DNA from: Octopus vulgaris
Taxonomy: Eukaryota
Assembly: GCA_951406725.2 (NCBI GenBank)
Contig: OX597819.1
Coordinates: 64,170,001 to 64,234,000, forward strand
DNA: 64,000 bases
Direction of reading: 5' to 3'
Below are positions 12,248-62,345 of the stretch, one piece after another (the first letter of the stretch is position 1; each line of letters opens with the position of its first letter). Under the pieces are notes generated by a model. It worked only from the letters and a program-made list of their open reading frames with translations. It had not been told where the DNA came from and made no database searches. The translations under genes were made by a program, and so were the position numbers.

Positions 12248-12344
12248 CATACATTCATATATATATATATATATATATCTATATATATATATACGTACAT
12301 ACATACATTCATATATATATATATATATATATAATTAATTAATT

Positions 12345-12618
12345 AATAAGGGTGAGAGAATTAGATACTAATTTAATAGCATATCTATTCAACACCAAGT
12401 GGCCTAGTGCTCCGAGAAACCTGGATTATTATAATATTTTATAATATATTATAATATTTTTACAAAATAAATATAAGAGAGTGGTCACTATATGGCTCAC
12501 TCTAGCACTAGTTAATCCAAAAGGTTTCAATGGGAAACATGTATTTTTGTGGTTGAAACCTTTTGGATTAACTAGTGCTAGAGTGAGCCATATAGTGACC
12601 ACTCTCTTATATTTATTT

Positions 12619-13030: not shown

Positions 13031-13089
13031 GACAGTTCAACTTAGCTTAGATGGCGTATTCGGAAAATATTGCCTTACGTCATATTTAA

Positions 13090-13411
13090 AATAAGGGTGA
13101 GAAATTAGATATTAATTTAATTAACATCGATTTCACACCAGTGGTCTAGCATTTAAAAAAAATGAGGTTCAGTACAACTGTATAATACCTATATTAGAGG
13201 GAAACCACTATGTGGACACCCATATGTTAGAAATAGATCCGCTACAGTTTCACGACCAAGAAATGTTCTCAAGAAAAATTTTGCAAAACAACCAAAACGT
13301 AATCGAGCAAGACAAAAGAAAAAGTAATAAAAATAAGGATTATTCGTATACATCCGTAGCAGATCTATTTCTAGCGTATGGATGTCCACATAGTGGTTTC
13401 CCTCTAATATA
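13090..13411. mobile_element. PLE-type pLTR tail with inverted repeat
   Basis: AAGGGTGAGAAATTAGAT head. About 56 bp inverted repeat at 13190-13245 / 13356-13411 with a few transitions. Related to 21328-21820. Confidence 0.75.
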
Positions 13412-14267
13412 TATTCTATATATTTATAAGCATTTAATGCTTAACTTTTGGCATGTTTATCGTGTTAAATTTCCGTTTTTTCACCTCACTTGAAAACGAC
13501 TACGTTAAATTGGGTTCATGTCCTCAACTTCTTCAATGCACTCTAAATACGTATCGATTCCCATCGTCCGTGTATGCATGTCTGGCAGCTTGCTTACATC
13601 CACAATGTTCTACCCACATACCGTCGCACGCTTATGAACAGTCTCACATCAATTACTCTAGTTGATTTGTTCATGTCAAAAATTGCAACATGATTCGATG
13701 TATAAAACATATGCCTACGCTATAATAAATTCGATTATAGTTATCGCATGCAGCGTTATAAAATGTCAAGGCATATGCACGATGTTGTGAGATAACCAAG
13801 AAATATAATTAGAACACACTTGAAAACAGGATGTTACGGGACCTGAAATTATGACACACTTAATTCATTTATGAAGAGACACTCCAGAGAAGAAAAAAAT
13901 ATAATTGAAACAAAAAGGAGAAAAATGAAAGCAAATAATTGTACGAGTTTAATCATCGAGCACATTTGATCGACCTAATAATTTAATGAGTATGCCTCCA
14001 TTTGGACGTCAACTACGTTACTTTAATCAGGTGGTGATGCTTAGCTAGTAAATGCGTAAATAAAAATATAATTAAGCAAATAAAATGAATCTTCCCAAAT
14101 TATAGACACCCGCAATCATAAAAACATGAATGATTATAACTACATCCATATATAAATGAATGTAAACACATATATAAAAATGCATATATATTTATGTAAC
14201 TGTACATATATATATGTATATGCGTGTGTGTGTGACCTTAAATAGTACGTTTTTATCTAAGTATATT

Positions 14268-16536: not shown

Positions 16537-16631
16537 ATATTTGCCACTCAAATGTGGCAAAGCCATAAGTGTGGATACAAGCTACAGTAGCATCCACACT
16601 TATGGCTTTGCCACATTTGAGTGGCAAATAT
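16537..16631. repeat. Perfect 40 bp inverted repeat (hairpin)
   Basis: Arms 16537-16576 / 16592-16631. The loop itself contains GCTAC-A-GTAGC. Abuts (TA)n. Confidence 0.9.
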
Positions 16632-20932: not shown

Positions 20933-21818
20933 AGAGTAAACACTATGTGGTCGACTCTAGCACTAAAAATAGATCCTCTAGGTTTCAGCCACAGAGAATT
21001 GTTTCCGATGAAAGTTAGCACGACTACTAGCGCAAATGAACAGGGCAAATAAAAGTAACAAAAATGCAGATTAGTTCAGGACAAATGTTTCGCTATTAAT
21101 AAATTATGTAATTTTACTCACATAACATATCTGTAGCTCTTCAGCCGAACCCGTCCAGAATACAATTTACTCAACCGCACACTAGATTTTACCATAACGA
21201 TAAACACACGTGCGGTTCAGTCGATTGCATTCGCTGTTATAATTCAAGTGTCCCTGCCACAGCCCGCCAAAATTCACGGAAACAGATGCTACATCCAAAA
21301 TTAAATGCAGTATAATTACAATCAACTAAGGGTGAGAAAATTGGATACTAATTTAATAGTACATCCATTTAACACCAAGCGGCTTATTGCATAAAAACCT
21401 GGATTACGATAAATTTTATACATAAATATAAGAGAGTAACCACTATGTGGTCGACTCTAGCACTAAAAATAGATCCGCTAGGTTTCAGCCACAGAGAATT
21501 GTTTCCGATGAAAGTTATGTGAGTAAAATTACATAATTTATTAATAGCGAAACATTTGTCCTGAACTAATCTGCATTTTTGTTATTTTCATTTGCCCTGT
21601 TCGTTTGCGCTAGTAGTCGTGCTAACTTTCATCGGAAACAATTCTCTGTGGCTGAAACCTAGCGGATCTATTTTTAGTGCTAGAGTCGACCACATAGTGG
21701 TTACTCTCTTATATTTATGTATAAAATTTATCGTAATCCAGGTTTTTATGCAGTAAGCTAGTTGATGTTAAATGGATGTACTATTAAATTAGTATCCAAT
21801 TTTCTCACCCTTATTAGT

Positions 21819-21820
<2 letters not shown>
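20933..21820. mobile_element. HHR-containing PLE pLTR or retrozyme-like element: 500 bp partial tandem plus inverted copy
   Basis: Direct repeat with period 500 (CACTATGTGG at 20941 and 21441). Inverted arms at about 21328-21517 / 21623-21812. 21518-21707 is the reverse complement of 20933-21125. (TA)n at both ends. Confidence 0.85.
21074..21150 (-). ncRNA. Type I hammerhead ribozyme
   Basis: GTTCGG-CTGAAGA-GCTA..TAGC-GAAA-CATTTG-TC^CTGAAC. Stem I 6 bp, stem II GCTA/TAGC, minimal stem III, GUC triplet, predicted cut between 21080 and 21079. Confidence 0.82.
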
Positions 21821-21894
<74 letters not shown>

Positions 21895-25332: not shown

Positions 25333-26429
25333 CTATATTTGTGTGTGCGTGTGTGTGAGTGCATAAATCTGTATCTCTGTTGCGGTCTATGTCTCAAAAC
25401 ATATTCACATTCACCACATCTAGATTCGCAAAACTCAAGCTTACTATTTAATTCTTGTCTGCTCTCCTCCCAATACTATTTTCTGCTATAAGAATCATCG
25501 TAATTCAACTTCATTTTTATTGCCATAATCATTACATATATTCATACGTGAATTCTCAAAATATGTTTTTTTGTTATTTATTTTATTACCATTGACAACT
25601 GCCAAGCAGACTGATCGTTTAAAATCTAAGCAAACCGGAAAACATATTCTAGACATAAATAATAATCATGGCCGATGCACAAATTATATAATTATTGCAA
25701 ACATGATGCCAACGTAATAGCTAGAAAATAATTTCTGTCGTAGAATTTTATCGTAATTATTGTAAGTTTTTAGAGTTTCCAATAACGACAATGAAATTTA
25801 GAATAGAAATTTAACTACCTCAAATATGTTCGTTTATAAAAATGTGTGATAAAATTGTTTGAATATTCTCACTTATCATATTCCATATTTGCTTATTATA
25901 TTAAATACAACACGATGACATTTACTTTATGATTTACAAAACACAAAAATATACAGGGCGGAATAAAAACTTATGCATACATTTTACATCATCGTTAATG
26001 GCTTCGCTCTTGCTTCTATGATTATCATTTATTTGTGATTTGCAAGCTCCCACACACACACATACGTCTATATGTAAGTACATACACATGTATAATCTTT
26101 ACAACATATTCACTTGTTTAACATATATATTCATTTATATTCATTATGTTTCACACTCAGTAACAGCGCATCAATGATATTTAGTAAATCAGATATCTTT
26201 AGATATTTAAATGTTAGAAACCTCATAGGAATCTACAAAAACTTCAACCATATAAATTCCACGTATATTTATATATTTATAGGTTATGAAGTACAACATT
26301 ATTTAATGTTTCTGTTATTTTGTATTCGGTTATAAAATTTAAAATAATTATTTCTGAATTTTGTCAGGCATTGTCTTCTTCTGCCAGGTTATTATGCATG
26401 CCTACAGCTGGAATGCGACGTAAAAATAA

Positions 26430-27070
26430 ATATTTGCCTTACTGACATCACATTTGAATATATAACAAAACTTGAAGGCTGGCTATCAAGTCTTTTCTAT
26501 CATTTATTACATGTCAGCATTATATGAACTATAATCGTAAAAAAAACATTACTTAAATATTTATCTTTCAAAATATATAGTAGAGTAAATATAAAGATTT
26601 TAAAACGTGGGAGGTTTATTTGATTATGTAACTAATTTCAGCTCATAGTTTAATATAAACATTTTGGGGGGATTTTTGTAACTAAATTACAGGTGTTTTA
26701 TACATATCAGTTCAGTATCAAAACCCACGAAAAGTAAAATATCAACAACATATATTTGCCTTACTGACATCACATTTGAATATATAACAAAACTTGAAGG
26801 CTGGCTATCAAGTCTTTTCTATCATTTATTACATGTCAGCATTATATGAACTATAATCGTTAAAAAAATCATTACTTAAATATTTATCTTTCAAAATATA
26901 TAGTAGAGTAAATATAAAGATGTTAAAACGTGGGAGGCTTATTTGATTATGTAACTAATTTCAGCTCATAGTTTAATATAAAAATTTTGGGGGGATTTTT
27001 GTAACTAAATTACGGGTATTTTATACATATCCGTTCAGTATCAAAACCCAAGAAAAGTAAAATATCAACA
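26430..27070. repeat. Near-identical tandem duplication, period 322 bp
   Basis: 26430-26748 is repeated at 26752-27070 with scattered substitutions. Confidence 0.9.
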
Positions 27071-27194
27071 ATGATGTATATATGATTATAGAAATGTATG
27101 TATCTGTGCAGCATATTCACACTAACATACACATAAACACAAACATACACACACACACGTGTGCACGCGTGTGCGTGTACCTGTACATATGATT

Positions 27195-27900: not shown

Positions 27901-28148
27901 ACCTAGTGTGACGTCAGTCTCGTATCTTTCGCAATGAGTATTCGACTCATGACACACAGGGCATAATGTACTTTTCTTCTGCTTTCAAGCGATTCAGACT
28001 GAGTAATTTTTCGCCTGATATTCTGTTAAAATATACACACGTATATAATGTTCTGAGGGCAGAAAAAATGTGGAAGATGTAAAGGGTGTTTACACAGTCC
28101 AAACTGATTCTACAGTGTATGTTGAATTATTCTGAACGGTAATAAAAA

Positions 28149-28287
28149 TTTACATTATTTACATTTGACGATTATTTGTCCTCTTCTTGTTTGTTGATAA
28201 CACAAAGTTTCGGTTGATATACCCTCCAGCTGATATACCTTCGGCTGATATATCCTCATCAGGTGTCTTGGGGACATTTCGAACCTG
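28149..28287 (-). mobile_element. HHR-bearing repeat, inverted partner of 29325-29513
   Basis: Minus strand reads GACAC-CTGATGA-..(internal micro-duplication of GGTATATCAGC)..-GAAA-CTTT-GTGTT (28199-28267). Confidence 0.75.
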
Positions 28288-28291
28288 AATG

Positions 28292-28467: not shown

Positions 28468-29216
28468 TGATCCTGTTGTCTCCAAGTGTTGTCTCCATTG
28501 ATCATGTTGTCTCCAAGTGCAGTCTTCTAGCGCCTACAGAGTATCTCAACAGGCATGATAGAGCTGCACAATATATTCACTGGTTAATCTGCAAAAACCT
28601 GGATTTGCCCCATGAAAAAAATGGTGGGAACACAAACCACCCCCAGTGCTTGAAAATGACCACATCTCACTCCTCTGGAACTTCCCCATTCAAACTGGCA
28701 GAAAGATAGATGCAAATAGGCCAGACGTCATATTGAAAGACTTCAAACAAAGAACATGCCTCCTCATTGATATGACTGTCCCAATCGATATAAACGTATC
28801 TGTCAAGACCTACCAAAAACTGAGCAAATATAAAGATATTGAAATAGAAATCAGCAAAATGTAGAACCTGAATACTTAAACAATACCTGTTGTCATAGGT
28901 GCCCTGGGAATGATAGCAAAAGTGGCTGATTGCTACCTAACTCAGATACAAGGAAACGCCAAAATGGCAGAAATTCAAAAGATAGTGCTCATGGGAACTG
29001 CTCATATCCTACGCAAAATACTTTCTATGTAATCTCAAGGTTTAAATCAAACATTTTTTTTAGACATCCACTAGTACAACACAAAAAAAAAAACAACCAA
29101 ATATATGGCACGCTAGGCATAACAACAACGTGAACTTCCAGCCTGTTGTCTCTTGAGGTCTCTGGGTGAGACTTGGAGCCAACTTGTCCAAATATAAAGC
29201 AAAAGTCAAACATAGA
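28467..29216 (+). mobile_element. 5'-truncated R4/Dong-like non-LTR retrotransposon (restriction-like endonuclease) in (TAA)n
   Basis: IDHVVSKC..YLNRHD..IHW, LLWNFPIQT..ANRPDVIL..CLLIDMTVP..KLSKYKD, IPVVIGALG and ..GTAHILRK. One frameshift and in-frame stops. TAA repeats on both sides. Confidence 0.9.
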
Positions 29217-29260: not shown

Positions 29261-29374
29261 CACAACAACAACAACAACAATAATGATGATGATCATGATC
29301 ATGATGATCATGATGATAATAATAACATCGAAAAATACCTTAGTAAATAGAGCCCACGTTCGAAATTTTCCCAA

Positions 29375-29420
29375 GACACCTGATGAAACCTGGAGGGTAT
29401 ATCAGCCGAAACATTGTGTT
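29375..29420 (+). ncRNA. Minimal type I hammerhead motif (mutated) within repeat 29325-29513
   Basis: GACAC-CTGATGA-A-ACCTG..CAGCC-GAAA-CATT^GTGTT. Stem I GACAC/GTGTT is intact and the base of stem II is mismatched. Confidence 0.6.
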
Positions 29421-29772
29421 AATAACAAACAACATGAGGACTAATATCCGTCAAAGGTAAATAATGTAAATAATGTACATAATTGCTCATCTCTTAAATA
29501 TAGAACTGTAGTAATCAAAATGTTATGGTTTTCATGACACCGTGGAATGATTGACCATACTCAGTATGCTCGCTCGCTAATCACACTTGAGAAAGATTTT
29601 GATAAGATCCTGCTCTCCAAATCTCAGTTTTCTATGGAGCCAAGAAAAGCATCGTAGCGTAGTTACAAATGCCAATTGTATAAGGATCTTGGAGCCAATT
29701 AAAAAGGAAATATTACGGGGTACGATAAAAATGCTTGCCATATGTTATGGAGGTAGTGATGTGGCGGTATGA

Positions 29773-38495: not shown

Positions 38496-38572
38496 TACAT
38501 ACATAAATACATATACACATGCATGTATACATATTTATATATAAGTGCATATATATCTATATATATACAAGA

Positions 38573-39115
<543 letters not shown>

Positions 39116-39199
39116 ATATGCAGATATATATGTATCTTGGTGTTTGTATCCGAGTAAAAAATAAAATAAAAGGTCAATGAATATTTAATAACGACTGCA

Positions 39200-40065
39200 A
39201 ATTTCTGCCACAAGGGAAGCTTGTGGGAGAGGATGAAGGTGACTACATCGACCTCAATGCCTAACTGGTACTTATTTCACCGACCCCGAAGCGATGAAAT
39301 ACGAAGTCGACCTCGGCCGAATTTGAACTCAGAATGCAGCGACGAGCAAATTGCTATTTAGCCTCTTGCCACGCGTGCTAACCATTCTTTTCTACTCTAG
39401 GCACAAAGCCCGAAATTTTTATGGAGAGGGCAGTCGAATAGATCGACTCCAGTACGCAACCGGTTCTTAATTGATCGTTCCCGAAAGGATGTAAGTCAAA
39501 TTCGACCTCGGAGGAATTTGAACTCCGAACGTAAAGACAGACGAAATACCGCTAAGCATTTCGCCCCGCGTACTAATCATTCTGCCAGATCGCCGCTTTA
39601 GATGAATATATAATTATGATTTAAAATTTTTCGACAAGGGCTGCAACTTTGGGGGAAGGGATGAGTCGATTACACCTACCTAGTGATCAACAGGTACTCA
39701 TTTTATTGACACCTAAAGGATGAAGTGTAAGGTCGATCTTGGCAGAATTTGAACTCACAACGTAGTGATGGGTGAAATAGCGCTAAGCATTTCGTCCAGC
39801 ATGCTAACGATTCGACGAGCTCGCCGCTTTCTGATGAACATTTACTATTGCTTTCTACTGGAGGCACAAATCCTCAGATTTGTGGGGAGTGGACTAGTCG
39901 ATTACATCAGCCCAAATGTTGCACTGGTACTTAAGCTATCGAACCCGAAAGCATGAAAGGCAAAGTCGACCACGGCAGAAGTTGAACACAGAACTTAGCG
40001 ACGGATGAAATACCGCTAAGCATTTCATTCAGCGTGCTAACCAATCTAGCAGCTTGTTGCCGTCT
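39200..40065 (-). mobile_element. Four head-to-tail copies of tRNA-derived SINE family D
   Basis: Repeated ACTGGTACTTATTT.ATCGACCCCGAAAGGATGAAAGGCAAAGTCGACCTCGGCGGAATTTGAACTC..GCTAAGCATTTCG units at about 39200, 39390, 39620 and 39850. Confidence 0.88.
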
Positions 40066-40083
40066 GATGAATATTTAATAATA

Positions 40084-40498
40084 CTCTTTTACTCTTTTGC
40101 TTGTTTCAGTCATTTGACTGTGGCCATGCTGGAACACCGCCTTTATTCGTGCAAATCGATCCCAGGACTTATCCTTTGTAAGCTTAGTACTTATTTCATC
40201 GGTCTCTTACGCCGCGCCGCTATGTTACGGGGACGTAAACACACCAGCATCGGTTGCCAGGCGATGTGGGGAGACAAATACAGTGGCGCAAACATATACA
40301 CACTCATACATTATATATACATATATAGATATATACGACGGGCTTCTTTCAGTTTTCGTCTACCAAATCCACTCACAAGGCTTTGGTCGGCCCGAGGCTA
40401 TAGTAGAAGACACTTGCCCAAGATGACACGAAGTGGGACTGAACCCCGAAACATGTGGTTCGTAAGGAAGCTACTTACCCCACAGCCACTCCTACACC
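40084..40498 (-). mobile_element. SINE family A, full length
   Basis: Reverse complement of 6694-7181. Confidence 0.9.
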
Positions 40499-41057
40499 TA
40501 AAATAGTAAGTCTTTAAACCGATTGAATACTTTAATTGATAAACTCAACTCAACTGGTATAATTTTAAATGCTACACCTTAGAAAGCAATCCTGTGTAAG
40601 TAGCATTTCAATACAACCAAAGAACACCCACACAAAATTACTCAAAACGAAATAATAAACACTGTCACTAACATGTGTTATCTTTTAGAAGAATAACAAA
40701 CATTGTTTCTCCGATGCGATATATCTATGAGAACTATCCGCTTTCTCTTATCATCCTAAGTTTCAGTTGACGGTTTCTGGAATAACATGTCGAACATCTG
40801 GTTTTGATATAACAACAGCTTATATTAAAGTAGCACACTGCATCATGGAACATCTGTGAATGGCTTACTTCCTGCCTTGTCTGCAAGTATCAATTAACAA
40901 TTTAACGGTAACGTACTACATAATCCCATCACTATGACGTGCACACATTCTCTCTCACCCCACTATCTCTCTGTCACACACACACAAATACTCACACATT
41001 TATATGTATATATATATATATATGTTGCATGTATGAAAGTATGCATATATATACATG

Positions 41058-41118
<61 letters not shown>

Positions 41119-41224
41119 GCACATACACATACGATGGATTCTCTAGTCGTGAACGACAAAAGAGGGTTCGGTCAATTAAAGAGTTAATCATGTGTGGAGA
41201 CGAATGTGTCACTTGAGGCATATA

Positions 41225-41310
<86 letters not shown>

Positions 41311-41513
41311 AAATAGAAAGATGAATAATCTTGTAGTAGATTAATCAAAAGTTTAACCGATACCTTAGTAGCAAAAATCACAGCAGTAAACAGCACGGTT
41401 GGAGGTACAACCATATGGTGTTGCAACCGTGCGTTGGTGCGGATAATTGAAATTAAAACATTATTGGTGAATTGAAGAAATGGAGCTGAACGCAGATTGA
41501 AGAGAAATCGTTT

Positions 41514-41607
41514 TATTTCATTCTACACGTGTTTCGAAAGGCACAAATTACCAAAATCCGATTGAATAATGGGACCATATTGTGTCTTTCTCTTCAGGAA
41601 GAAAATA
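41514..41607 (-). ncRNA. Type I hammerhead ribozyme (inverted copy)
   Basis: Exact reverse complement of 41965-42058. Confidence 0.85.
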
Positions 41608-41964
41608 GGAAATCCGTTGGAAAAACAAAAACAGAACAGAGGCGGAGCAAAAACAAATCGAACTATGCTCCTAAGAGCCCATGGCGAAACTGTTTATCAG
41701 TGTATGTTGAGAACCGGTGGCTGAAGAATTTAACGAGTCAGGCACCGGTCAATCATGTGGGTGAGGGTGTGTAGGTGTTCTTTGTGACCGAGAATAAAGT
41801 TCTGACTATTTAAGGAATATTGGATGTTTTATAAGGGGCGAGAAAAATCTACTTAGAGACGTGTGTGTGTGTATACTGTTCTATATATGTGTGTGTTGGC
41901 GTAGGGGTAGAAAACATTTTTGTGTACGTGTGTGCGTTTGTTTTTGTTTTTCCAACGGATTTCC

Positions 41965-42058
41965 TATTTTCTTCCTGAAGAGAAAGACACAATATGGTCC
42001 CATTATTCAATCGGATTTTGGTAATTTGTGCCTTTCGAAACACGTGTAGAATGAAATA
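41965..42058 (+). ncRNA. Type I hammerhead ribozyme
   Basis: TATTTTCTTC-CTGAAGA-GAAAGACACAA..TTGTGCCTTTC-GAAA-CACGTG-TA^GAATGAAATA. Stem I 9/10 pairs, stem II 10/11 pairs, palindromic ACACGTGT stem III, GUA triplet, predicted cut after 42048. Confidence 0.87.
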
Positions 42059-42113
42059 AAACGATTTCTGTTCAATCTGCGTTCAGCTCCATTTCTTCAA
42101 TTCACCAATAATG

Positions 42114-42163
<50 letters not shown>

Positions 42164-42569
42164 ATAGGCCACAGTCTGACTAATAACTTAGCCACGATGA
42201 TAGCCTCAATGAATAATAAAAAATACCTATCAAATCCTACGTAACTAGAAAGATAGTGAACAATAAATGTAATAACCAACCAAAAAAGTAATAATAAATC
42301 AAAAAAGTTATAACCAATCTAAAAAAGTAATGTAAGAATTACCACTTTGTTAACATCACCATCACATATATATCAACGATTTTCGATCCTAACCGATACA
42401 TCTCACGGCAAGAGGTGCAAATGAGGGTAGCTATATCAAACTCTATTCTTCAACAAGTGCCACATATTAGAGGAGGCTCTTAGTAATAACAGTGTAGCAC
42501 AAAACGGCGGTGCATCGGCATGGCCGCAGCTCTGAGATAGAACTAAAACAAAATACACACTGAAACATA

Positions 42570-42965
42570 TCTAAGGTCTTAGGAATATTCATGTACAAAC
42601 TCAATAAAGATTGTGTGAATTTCTTCTTAACCTTACATTGTCAAACCATAGAATTCAATCTACTAAAGCCAAAAATAACTAAAAGTACTACCGTATCTTA
42701 TACCAACCTCCCAAAAGAGACTCATTTAAATATTCACTCAAGTATACAAAGATCTATATGCGTTAGTAAATTCTGAACAAGAGCACATCCGAAAATCCAA
42801 TCAATGAATATTTCTTGAAAATACCTGCCCATGATAACCCACACCAAAACCTAACTGCCACTGCACTCCAAACCAAAAGAAGGTTTTAACTAATCAGAGG
42901 CTATATAATGCCAAGATCAACACCCAAGCAATGCTACTTCGAAGTCACTATCAATAAAATTCTTT
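42570..42965 (+). pseudogene. Degraded Penelope linker/GIY-YIG remnant
   Basis: Fragments TVSYTNLPKETHLNIH and [11 protein letters not shown] resemble PLE KVSYSCMPN..IIN.HN and VIYQA. Confidence 0.4.
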
Positions 42966-42996
42966 TTTGCTTATTATATATATGTACATATATATA

Positions 42997-43204
<208 letters not shown>

Positions 43205-44217: not shown

Positions 44218-45535
44218 GCGTCCCGATGGTCAGGCGATCCATTTGCTGTCAACACCCGTTAAAAGGAGGGCTGGGCATGCCGTGGTTGATGATGCGCAGA
44301 CACGCGCTGAGACTGCGACATCTCTGGCTCTATGTAGACGACGGTGAACAGGTGTGGTCGCCGTTTGTGAGGCACGCTTTCCCGCAGCTCGTCTCCATGA
44401 CCGAACTGCAGTCGTGGATCAAAAAGAGGCCGAAGTAGGGCGAATGGCACCGCGAGTGTCGCGTTGCTCTCAAGCAACTCTGCCGTCCTGGGTCGACCTT
44501 GAGTGACTTCAACACAACCAAAGCATTCTATAGGGGTTTAGTGGAGGGGAGGTACGACGACGAGCTCGGGGCGAACCTGGACGTCGACGAGGAGTACCTG
44601 ACCCGCCTGTTCAGGACGACTTTCGGGCCAGGGCCCATGGACAACTTCCAGAGATCCCTGGCCTGGCAGTGCTACCGAGAAGCGCTACCCGTTCGGGATA
44701 AGCTCTACAGACACGGCTCGAGAAACACGGGGCCGACCTGCCCGAGATGCGGTCAGAGCGACGAAACCGTTCTGCACGCACTCGTGCAGTGTCCAACAAT
44801 TTCCGACCTGTGGGCTTGTGTTGAACAACTGCTGTCACGTGTGGGACGAGTCGGTTTATCAGCTGAGTCTATCGTTAATATTGTCACGCCTCTCTCCTTC
44901 AAACGGGAAGGAAGAGCTATTTTCATCATCCTTGTGGCTATGGCGAAAGAATGTATCTGGTGGACGCGTCTGAAAGGATTGGAGACAAACACTTTCCTCT
45001 CTGGTCAATCTCTCATCAACTTCTTCAAGTACCACTTGAAAAGGAAAGTGAGAGTAGAGAGGCAAGTTTTGTCTAGCGAATGTTTTAAAAAAGATGGGTG
45101 AATGTAGCAAGAATGGCACGTATGAATGACGAAGCCACCTTGAGCATGATCCTATGAACCCAGAAATTGAAAACAGAGAGTTGCTTATTTGCAAAAAAAA
45201 AAAAAAAAAGAAATATAACATGTGACTCCATTGACCGAGGTTACCGTGGTCTTTTCCGTAGGCTTTTCTTTCCGCGGGTAAACCTCACCTGTCCTCCCCT
45301 TTACACTTCATATTGACATTTCTGTGATAAAGATCCCTATTGATCAAATTTTTTTTCCTCTCCCCCTTTTTTTTAACCCCCTTTTTTTGTCCTCTTTCTC
45401 TCCTTTTACGATCCCTTTTGATCGAAACTCCCCCTTCCTTTTTTCTTTTTTTTTTTTTTAAACCTTCAAAAGAAAAGCTCTACCTTGTAATTTGTTCTAT
45501 CTGTGTGCAGCCCTGTGTGGCTAATAAAGAAACAT
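44218..45535 (+). mobile_element. 5'-truncated Tx1/L1-clade LINE inserted in (TATC)n
   Basis: ORF2 C-terminus QHPLKGGLGMP..WQCYREALPVRDKL..CPRCGQSDETVLHALVQC..W (CCHC knuckle). One in-frame stop at 44436-44438 and a frameshift near 45090. Pyrimidine-rich 3' UTR with AATAAA. TATC repeats on both sides. Confidence 0.9.
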
Positions 45536-47974: not shown

Positions 47975-47989
47975 CTTATATTCATATAA

Positions 47990-48394
47990 AAGAAGAAAAA
48001 GGTAAATGGAAATTGTGAAGTTAATAATTGTTTCTTATGAATAGCAAATTGTTCATCTTCGCTTACAGCTGTCTCAATTATTACTCAGTAAATTGTAATT
48101 AGATATAAAATTCATATGTATATCTTCAGAGGAAGACATATCCCTTCGGATGTTTAATATGAGTTTATGGATTCATTATAGCAAACTCACAAAACTGCTA
48201 TAATGAATCTATAAATTTATAAAACATCCAAGGATATAATTCTTTCCTCAGAAGTTATTAGGCTTAAGTGATATAAATATAAATTTACTATTTAATGTTT
48301 ACTGATTACTAACTTAGACAGCTGAAAGTAAAGATGATTAATTTAGCTTGAATAATAAGCAATTATTAACTTCTCAATCTCCATTTTCTTTTTC

Positions 48395-48400
<6 letters not shown>
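47990..48400. repeat. Old, diverged inverted repeat with about 200 bp arms
   Basis: 47990-48184 versus 48196-48400: AAATGGAAATTGTGAAGTTAATAATTG / CAATTATTAACTTCTCAATCTCCATTT and GATTCATTATAGCA / TGCTATAATGAATC. Lies between (TA)n runs. Confidence 0.8.
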
Positions 48401-48482
<82 letters not shown>

Positions 48483-59196: not shown

Positions 59197-59200
<4 letters not shown>

Positions 59201-59602
59201 ATGGAACGTTGATAGGTAAAGTTCCTTCTTTTTAGTGTTTCCAAATCCAAATTAAGAAATCTTGAGCTGACGAAAGAAATGCTGATTTTATTTGGCTAAT
59301 CTTGAAACGTTGACGTACTCAAACGATCTATGTACTTGTGATATTTTTCTGTATTTACCCCCAAACCTTCGTGAGCTGTCTGGAGTAAACATTATCTGAG
59401 AGAAATTTTCTTTAAGTAGTAGAAATGCTAAGAAAAAAATTTTTTTGGCTGCTATTTCTACTAAGTTCAGTATGTGGCAAAGTAATTTATTTTACTAAGC
59501 CCTAATTATATAATGTAATATTTTGAATTCGCCTTAAATGGTCCTTTTACATACTGAACACTTGGTGAAATTGATTAATTAATTAATTTTACCCTCAGTT
59601 GT

Positions 59603-59605
<3 letters not shown>
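59197..59605 (+). mobile_element. Solo pLTR or retrozyme-like monomer (about 410 bp) between (TA)n runs
   Basis: Contains an HHR. Ends CTTGGTGAAATTGATTAATTAATTAATTTTACCCTCAGTTGTTG-(AT)n, the same tail type as 21760-21820. Confidence 0.8.
59262..59322 (+). ncRNA. Type I hammerhead ribozyme
   Basis: TTGAG-CTGACGA-AAGA..TCTT-GAAA-CGTTGACG-TA^CTCAA. Perfect 5 bp stem I, all core nucleotides intact, GUA triplet, predicted cut after 59317. Confidence 0.85.
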
Positions 59606-59644
<39 letters not shown>

Positions 59645-59649
<5 letters not shown>

Positions 59650-60338
59650 TTTAACAATTAAGGATAACCTCTTAATAAGGAATCTTAACAAGAAATTATC
59701 GGGTAGTTAGCGTGAAAACCTCATAAAAGAAAAGAATTCGAAAATAATTTTTTTCTTTTGAACAAATTAATTATATCTATATTGTATAGAGGGCATTATT
59801 ACACATAAATGCCTCACACTAAGAGGGACTAAGTCATTACTACCAAAATTATACTAATCATACCCAAATGCAGTTTTTCAAAGCAAGACATTTAAAAAAA
59901 TGAATTTAGTTCTGTATCACCGTGAATTCACATTCAACTTGCGTCTTATGATCCTCAGCAGAACTGATTCTGAACACATCATAAATAAACTACCAACCTT
60001 ACGGAGCGAAGACGACCAGACAACTGATCACTCCGGCCAAGCACATGGAATGTTTATAAATCATATATCCGGTAAATGGCGGGCTTTTTACGAACTGCAT
60101 GTCGGGTAATAAAAAGTATTTCGGAATAAGTTTAACAATTAAGGATAACCTCTTAATAAGGAATCTTAAAAAGAAATTATCGGGTAGTTAGCGTGAAAAC
60201 CTCATAAAAGAAAAGAATTCGAAAATATTTTTTTCTTTTGAACAAATTAATTATATCTATATTGTATAGAGGGCATTATTACACATAAATGCCTCACACT
60301 AAGAGGGACTAAGTCATTACTACCAAAATTATACTAAT
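59645..60338 (-). mobile_element. HHR-containing partial tandem element, period 481 bp
   Basis: Near-identical direct repeats at 59645-59858 / 60126-60338. Abuts (TA)n. Confidence 0.85.
59908..59965 (-). ncRNA. Type I hammerhead motif with core substitution
   Basis: AGTTCTG-CTGAGGA-TCAT..ATGT-GAAT-TCACGGTGA-TA^CAGAACT. Perfect 7 bp stem I. GAAA reads GAAT and the first stem II pair is mismatched. Confidence 0.7.
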
Positions 60339-61115: not shown

Positions 61116-61277
61116 CATATGTTTATTTATTATGTGTTTAGTTATGTGTTAAAATCACAAGCGAAACCCCATAGCAATAGAAAGTTATACAATAGAATAT
61201 CACAACGTGTTTGTACTTGCGCCACAAAAGAGAGAAAAAAAATCAGGAAAATACAATTATTATTCTTATCATTAAAA

Positions 61278-62345
<1,068 letters not shown>

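Follow-up and report, generated by a model that had tools for sequence, protein, structure and literature searches.

The unit at 41310-42115 is very probably a young, non-coding, 5'-truncated insertion of a Penelope-type element (PLE), in which a 629-nt minus-strand copy and an inverted 177-nt copy lie head to head in (TA)n, and which would not cleave in read-through transcripts. All positions refer to the window, by which we mean the whole 64,000-nt stretch of Octopus vulgaris DNA that was analysed. The pair of hammerheads in the unit is likely a known by-product of PLE insertion, which had gone unnoticed in the first-pass annotation. The unit adds one truncated head-to-head insertion to those of a very common repeat that carries a hammerhead, and as such it matters little. 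Its use is that of a clean example, in which the tail and the stem-loop give two predicted priming sites for a test of the two-start model of PLE reverse transcription. Being a young insertion whose arms probably come from one template, it could also be typed for polymorphism.

Anatomy of the unit

The unit is 806 bp long, has a (TA)n tract on either side, and is composed of the following features.

41220-41309, no strand: left target tract of (TA)n, with (GT)3 at its end (from the sequence)
41310-41938, minus: main copy, 629 nt, continuous, of a high-copy repeat family, with its 5' end at 41938 and its 3' end at 41310 (contig mapping, 30 of 30 bins in four of four runs)
41310-41456, minus: one-sided 147-nt 3' extension (tail), missing from the right copy
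41393-41432, minus: 9-bp stem-loop within the tail
41457-41633, minus: left arm of the inverted repeat, belonging to the main copy
41516-41604, minus: type I hammerhead motif, predicted cut 41524/41523
41634-41938, minus: spacer separating the arms; it consists of family sequence from upstream of the hammerhead and includes an AC-rich, microsatellite-like stretch
41939-42115, plus: right arm, an inverted 5'-truncated second copy without the tail
41968-42056, plus: type I hammerhead motif, the same as that of the left arm, predicted cut 42048/42049
42116-42159, no strand: right (TA)n target tract (from the sequence)

The inverted arms (41457-41633 and 41939-42115) are 177 bp each and complementary at 176 of 177 positions, the sole mismatch being at 41502/42070. 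A second arm comparison gave 180 nt, which includes three flanking letters. The left arm is not terminal, since 147 bp separate it from the left (TA)n boundary. The 3' ends of both copies face outward, the left copy ending 214 nt and the right copy 67 nt past its cut site, and the cut sites of the two motifs are 524 bp apart. No target-site duplication was readable in the flanking (TA)n tracts, and no palindrome was found at the inverted junction 41938/41939. The window is AT-rich, with a GC content of 27-42% per 2 kb, is rich in (TA)n, (CA)n and (AAT)n tracts, and contains no long coding frames except a LINE fragment. The main copy is non-coding and likely a pseudo-LTR region.

The hammerhead motif

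Each arm contains the conserved CUGAAGA (+41975 and -41597). The stem II region of 55 nt (5 bp, a mismatch and 5 bp) is closed by G10.1-C11.1 and followed by GAAA. Stem III has 2 bp (A-U/C-G) and the loop ACGU, with the 8-mer ACACGUGU being self-complementary, and stem I is composed of 3 bp, a bulged U and 4 bp. The cleavage triplet is GUA, with H17 at 42048 on the plus strand and at 41524 on the minus strand. The core CUGANGA, GAAA, UH and stems I-III, which define a type I hammerhead, are all present. The first-pass annotation had described a complete and identical hammerhead in each 177-bp inverted arm, with a palindromic stem III, a long stem II and cuts at 42048/42049 and 41524/41523; all of this held. 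The hammerhead pattern matched twice in the window as compared to no match in 100 of 100 shuffles. A structural descriptor detected four distinct motifs in the window (the two arm motifs, -21144 and +59267), and when it was applied to 30 shuffles, 27 contained no motif and three contained one, none being of the strict class. Searching Rfam at the gathering score gave 0 matches in the whole window, and at E<=10 no hammerhead family was found among the 59 matches in 38500-43000; those listed are microsatellite-borne or weak. The long stem II may be the reason why Rfam called no hammerhead.

The available text of PMC4209133 describes metazoan PLE hammerheads as having G10.1-C11.1, a large helix II and a small palindromic helix III. 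The octopus motif, a predicted ribozyme, resembles them in these features and in being of type I. It differs from those that Cervera and De la Pena (2014) describe there in its longer stem II region (55 nt, with a 33-nt distal part) and in having no extra base between 9 and 10.1. Dual hammerheads on opposite strands, ~100-700 bp apart, were noted in Schistosoma in 2014, according to the same text.

The repeat family and continuity of the main copy

Contigs from public sequencing runs were mapped on 41310-41938 for four runs, with run X20 (share 0.11) left out. The contigs mapped numbered 6936, 1672, 1731 and 90 per run, and all 30 bins were covered in each of the four. Single contigs had a depth of >1000, a value from which the method does not give copy number. 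Among the runs listed, 19 of 24 contain at least half of the sampled words; six organism labels are represented, and the runs are as small as 5-6 million letters. The stretch 41310-41938 belongs to a high-copy dispersed family. Exact-pattern scans of metagenome, prokaryote-genome and viral contigs gave 0 matches each, so no full-length element was found in them.

The left arm boundary 41633/41634 was crossed by eight of 32 pieces among the matches listed (10,493 more exist), each with two to six differences from the window, and the summed depth showed no dip there. None of the listed pieces had 31 letters on both sides of this boundary, the best ones having 58/30 and 53/30. The boundary 41456/41457 was crossed by one piece listed, with 35 and 61 letters per side. 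Because contig pieces cross both boundaries, the tail, the left arm and the spacer form one continuous minus-strand copy. An arrangement in which the spacer and the right arm constitute the main copy, with the inversion point at 41633/41634, had been considered and was overturned by the contig mapping.

No strand-changing joint from 41938 into an arm was found among the joints listed for the four runs. In run X16, a contig of 358 nt matches 41771-41938, then goes on for 188 letters, and none of its listed pieces lies on an arm. These data suggest that upstream of 41938 the family carries other sequence, and that the inverted 5'-truncated copy forming the right arm was acquired at this locus. 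This second copy would meet the main copy head to head at 41938/41939, a position deduced from the contig mapping. The depth drops at 41919-41938, where the drop is confounded with the edge of the mapped stretch and is no proof of the junction. In three of the four runs mapped, a diverged subfamily parts from the family sequence at 41720.

In the family, 35 substitution rows reached at least 5%. None of them fell in the 19 core and stem III positions or in the 22 stem II positions, distal stem II had three, and stem I had one plus one deletion; four indel rows were hidden in this listing. Conservation of the hammerhead is consistent with selection but is not significant, since ~2.3 rows are expected in 41 positions by a hand count. 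RNA editing was considered as a source of the A>G and T>C rows of run X16, a guessed-RNA run, but the same rows also occur in DNA runs and provide no evidence for it.

The insertion had been called young from the low arm divergence, and the comparison with the family agrees: there is one mismatch in 177 bp, and the arms share the same letter at nine of ten family-variable sites compared. At 41502 the left arm has a near-private letter, whereas the right arm agrees with nearly all of the family depth. Copying from one template and an insertion that is young though not brand-new would fit these letters best; conversion between the arms may also have produced their identity. Near-private letters were also found at 41736 and 41745. 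Together with a third one at 41731, they lie in a spacer hairpin (41709-41746, ACCGGTG...CACCGGT).

Predicted folding and the self-cleavage question

The first-pass annotation had proposed that transcripts of either strand of the locus could cleave themselves, in competition with formation of dsRNA. It is borne out that a read-through RNA of either strand carries one sense hammerhead together with its antisense. The proposed competition, on the other hand, was not supported: the antisense arm is made first, and the active fold is predicted to cost 131-135 kcal/mol. The arm duplex was predicted at -306.7 kcal/mol, and when the active fold was forced in four read-through transcripts, the predicted cost was 130.9-134.7 kcal/mol. 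Without the antisense arm the cost was 4.7 kcal/mol for the isolated motif, 7.6 for the right arm, 8.4 for the spacer plus right arm and 11.0 for the main copy. All of these are equilibrium predictions that consider neither tertiary contacts nor proteins. The isolated motif is predicted to bury CUGA in a small hairpin, which is preferred over the core by 4.7 kcal/mol, and the stem III palindrome is predicted to form a dimer duplex of 8 bp at -10.3 kcal/mol.

Given the head-to-head layout, transcription in either direction reaches the antisense arm first and the sense ribozyme later. Variants with a small palindromic helix III show weak activity, and only as dimers, in the available text of PMC4209133, and a double hammerhead requires a palindromic loop and a tandem arrangement, as stated in the accessible part of PMC6466107. 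Each transcript of the inverted pair has one sense motif, so a cis dimer cannot form. The inverted layout lowers, rather than raises, the chance of cleavage, and the unit is predicted to be not self-cleaving when read through. The read-through RNA would instead form a 177-bp hairpin, which may serve as a small-RNA source or an editing substrate, and cleavage would need a transcript start in the spacer as well as a partner in trans or a protein. In Drosophila, siRNAs arise from inverted Penelope copies and match their inverted regions, according to the part of PMC3681739 that is available; the octopus unit is like these copies in being a long inverted repeat able to form dsRNA, an ability predicted here from sequence.

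A functional two-way switch, in which transcripts of either strand are cut at their own hammerhead against the hairpin, would be new if true, but the anatomy and the predicted folding argue against it, and we regard it as highly improbable. Both motifs are complete and identical, contigs of the guessed-RNA run cover the family, and none of the 35 family substitution rows lies in the core, stem III or stem II, although the last point is not significant and speaks for the family rather than for this locus. These points are outweighed by the order of transcription, which places the antisense arm first both ways, by the cost of 131-135 kcal/mol, and by the preference of even the isolated motif for its hairpin. 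In addition, hammerheads with a 2-bp stem III are weak cleavers that as a rule depend on a tandem dimer (PMC4209133, available text). Hammerhead cleavage is not needed for PLE insertion in vitro, where ribozyme-dead lizard PLE mutants insert, and the available sections of PMC11167929 report no RNA ends at the cut site. Finally, the insertion is young and lies in a microsatellite, and locus-specific transcription is not in evidence.

Origin of the insertion

Several features of PLEs were found in the unit: a type I hammerhead near the 3' end, the distance being 67 nt in one copy and 214 nt in the other; an inverted 5'-truncated copy at the 5' end, with the junction position deduced as above; an AT-rich (TA)n target; and a dispersed multicopy family. 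A further PLE trait, direct pLTRs placed around an ORF by a partial-tandem arrangement, could not show in a copy this short. PLE insertions are known to have an inverted 5'-truncated copy at the 5' end, a one-sided tail of 30-40 nt and (TA)n targets (PMC8557442). The head-to-head arrangement is the most frequent one in PLEs, with inverted pLTRs of 181-218 bp, as far as the available text of PMC3846280 covers them. Pfam gave no match for two candidate frames, and none of the 116 filtered ORFs of the window had a PLE domain, the one ORF with a Pfam match being LINE zf-RVT. A 46-codon plus-strand frame (41634-41771) was rejected as an endonuclease end, for it is antisense to the element and has no Pfam match. 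Because no RT or GIY-YIG frame could be linked to the unit, its membership in the PLEs is put as likely and no firmer.

The shape of the unit would be explained as follows. The GIY-YIG endonuclease of the element, acting in trans, would cut both strands of the AT-rich target, and reverse transcription would be primed from both target 3' ends on the element RNA. Synthesis would begin at two internal starts, one matching 41310 (214 nt past the hammerhead cut) and one matching 41457 (67 nt past it), and the 5' ends of the two incomplete cDNAs would then be connected. With both target 3' ends acting as primers, the outcome would be a head-to-head pair with the 3' ends outward, one long and one short, and the hammerhead would owe its duplication only to its position within the copied end. 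The available sections of PMC11167929 describe a PLE protein that cuts AT-rich DNA on both strands, extends both, and has two internal RNA starts in the stem-loop region; we infer that the one-sided tail arises because reverse transcription starts at two such sites. An alternative route, self-priming on an antisense template, was suggested from junction palindromes in rotifer copies (PMC3846280, available text).

Compared to the EN+ PLEs (Penelope/Poseidon, Neptune, Nematis and Hydra; PMC8557442 and the available text of PMC3846280), the unit is alike in its adjacent inverted 5'-truncated copy in head-to-head position, in its arm of pLTR size (177 as against 181-218 bp), in the extension at one end only, in the (TA)n target with an unreadable duplication, and in the hammerhead near the 3' end. 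It is unlike them, as far as those texts go, in its tail of 147 nt instead of 30-40 nt and in the lack of a junction palindrome. The clade of the element cannot be named because this copy has no ORF. PAc, a Poseidon of Anolis (Frangieh et al. 2024; PMC11167929, available sections), likewise ends at either of two 3' positions past the hammerhead, in a region with a stem-loop, and its target is AT-rich; priming on both strands would yield the shape of the octopus unit. The two systems differ in that the ends are 147 nt apart here and that no ORF start was found in stem II here.

Among other origins, a dispersed monomer of a non-autonomous hammerhead element, either an animal non-LTR retrozyme or a PLE-derived SINE-like family, which was inserted by a PLE enzyme, is improbable, though less so than the remaining ones. 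In its favour, no coding frame was found and the copy number is very high, and retrozymes have type I hammerheads and were proposed to be derivatives of PLE pLTRs (bioRxiv 10.64898/2026.07.22.740005, available part). The unit resembles the animal non-LTR retrozymes (available parts of PMC7229834 and of the same preprint) in its type I hammerhead, non-coding nature, low GC and high copy, but it is inverted rather than tandem and longer than their usual unit. Retrozymes are tandem repeats of 150-450 bp in the accessible text of PMC7229834, whereas the octopus unit forms no tandem unit with a hammerhead and has no direct repeat at the locus, although tandem copies may exist elsewhere. Moreover, the continuous copy of 629 nt seems to go on upstream, judging from the X16 contig with its 188 letters past 41938, and the joints listed include none that leads back to the unit's other end.

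A near-perfect long inverted repeat with a non-coding spacer and TA flanks might also be taken for a fold-back DNA transposon or MITE that has terminal inverted repeats of 177 bp and targets TA. We consider this extremely improbable: in a fixed-length unit both termini would bear the repeats, but the left arm is followed outward by the 147-nt extension, and the strand-changing joint from 41938 to an arm is absent among the joints listed in the four runs. The presence of a hammerhead in the arms and the varying arm and spacer lengths of other insertions in the window are also against it. A fold-back chimera from assembly or library preparation, which would have duplicated the 177 bp, has equally little probability. 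The arms are nearly identical, the junction 41938/41939 was deduced rather than read-confirmed, and such structures do trouble assemblies (PMC8557442). However, the arms differ at 41502, where the right one has the family letter and the left one a near-private letter, their ends differ and each adjoins its own (TA)n tract, and the same architecture recurs in the window with more diverged arms. PLE insertion followed by head-to-head joining remains the reading that we prefer.

The tail and its stem-loop

The extra hairpin at 41393-41432, to which the first-pass annotation had drawn attention, is present, with a z of -2.4 and six of 200 shuffles equally stable. Family variation in it amounts to five substitution rows in the loop and one at the stem end, which leaves a G-U pair. 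The stem-loop may possibly be a reverse-transcription start or a protein-binding signal. The long one-sided tail with its stem-loop is the sole detail that goes beyond the published PLE description (147 nt as against 30-40 nt). No tails of >40 bp and no description of this repeat family were found in the literature searched, a weak negative as supplements and repeat libraries may list them.

A 71-codon frame in the tail (41522 to 41310) was considered as the start of a PLE ORF and rejected; 369 of 2000 shuffles had an equally long one, and it has no homologue, two chance matches to repetitive proteins and no Pfam domain. No ORF start was found in stem II either, where the frame stops after 21 codons.

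The tail is 147 nt in this unit as compared to a long/short difference of ~105-116 nt in a second family of the window. Tentatively, and with more doubt than confidence, one may propose that the hammerhead families of this genome use a second start of reverse transcription 105-150 nt beyond the first, which is three to four times the length of published tails (30-40 nt), with the conserved stem-loop 41393-41432 marking the long-tail start, so that every head-to-head insertion would represent one long and one short priming event. Young scars of this kind would then be dsRNA sources whose ribozymes are silenced by the insertion route itself.

Other insertions and repeats in the window

The second family, which carries the hammerhead -21144, has head-to-head insertions at 12336-12616, 13084-13414 and 20934-21822. 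Each has one long and one short end, ~105-116 nt apart, and two of the three lie in (TA)n. The insertion at 20934-21822 is a three-piece tandem and inverted one in (TA)n with an intact hammerhead -21144 (H17 21080); its plus-strand copy begins inside stem II, and one end is ~116 nt longer. Those at 12336-12616 and 13084-13414 are older, with 69-78% identity to the 20934-21822 family. A third hammerhead-bearing piece, 59198-59606, has its core at +59267, H17 at 59317 and a stem III loop of the UGA/UGAC type. It ends in (TA)n, has a short terminal hairpin, and over its last 25 nt is similar to the 21822 family end.

Related CUGAUGA...GAAA motifs were found on opposite strands at 28148-28290 (minus) and 29330-29520 (plus), with their 3' ends outward. 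This pair flanks a decayed fragment of LINE-like coding sequence at ~28530-29030 as well as (AAT)n/(GAT)n tracts, and partial relatives of the motifs are located at 2593-2637 and 2852-2905. An old palindrome of ~70% between (TA)n tracts (47975-48412) has CUGANGA at -48129 and -48251 and is probably a decayed insertion of the same kind. A short near-perfect palindrome at 16537-16631 adjoins a (TA)n tract.

Repeats of other types were also observed. A 220-codon frame at 44439-45098 with zf-RVT (PF13966, E 2.3e-08) is a LINE 3' fragment. A young direct duplication at 26422-27071 consists of a 328-bp head-to-tail pair with 96% identity, and a young 211-bp direct pair with 99% identity (59648-59858 and 60129-60338) is 481 bp apart, the second member starting right after (TA)n. 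Tandem and dispersed SINE-like repeats of ~230 bp, together with two other common short repeats, occupy 39177-40093, 40088-40493 and 61256-62345.
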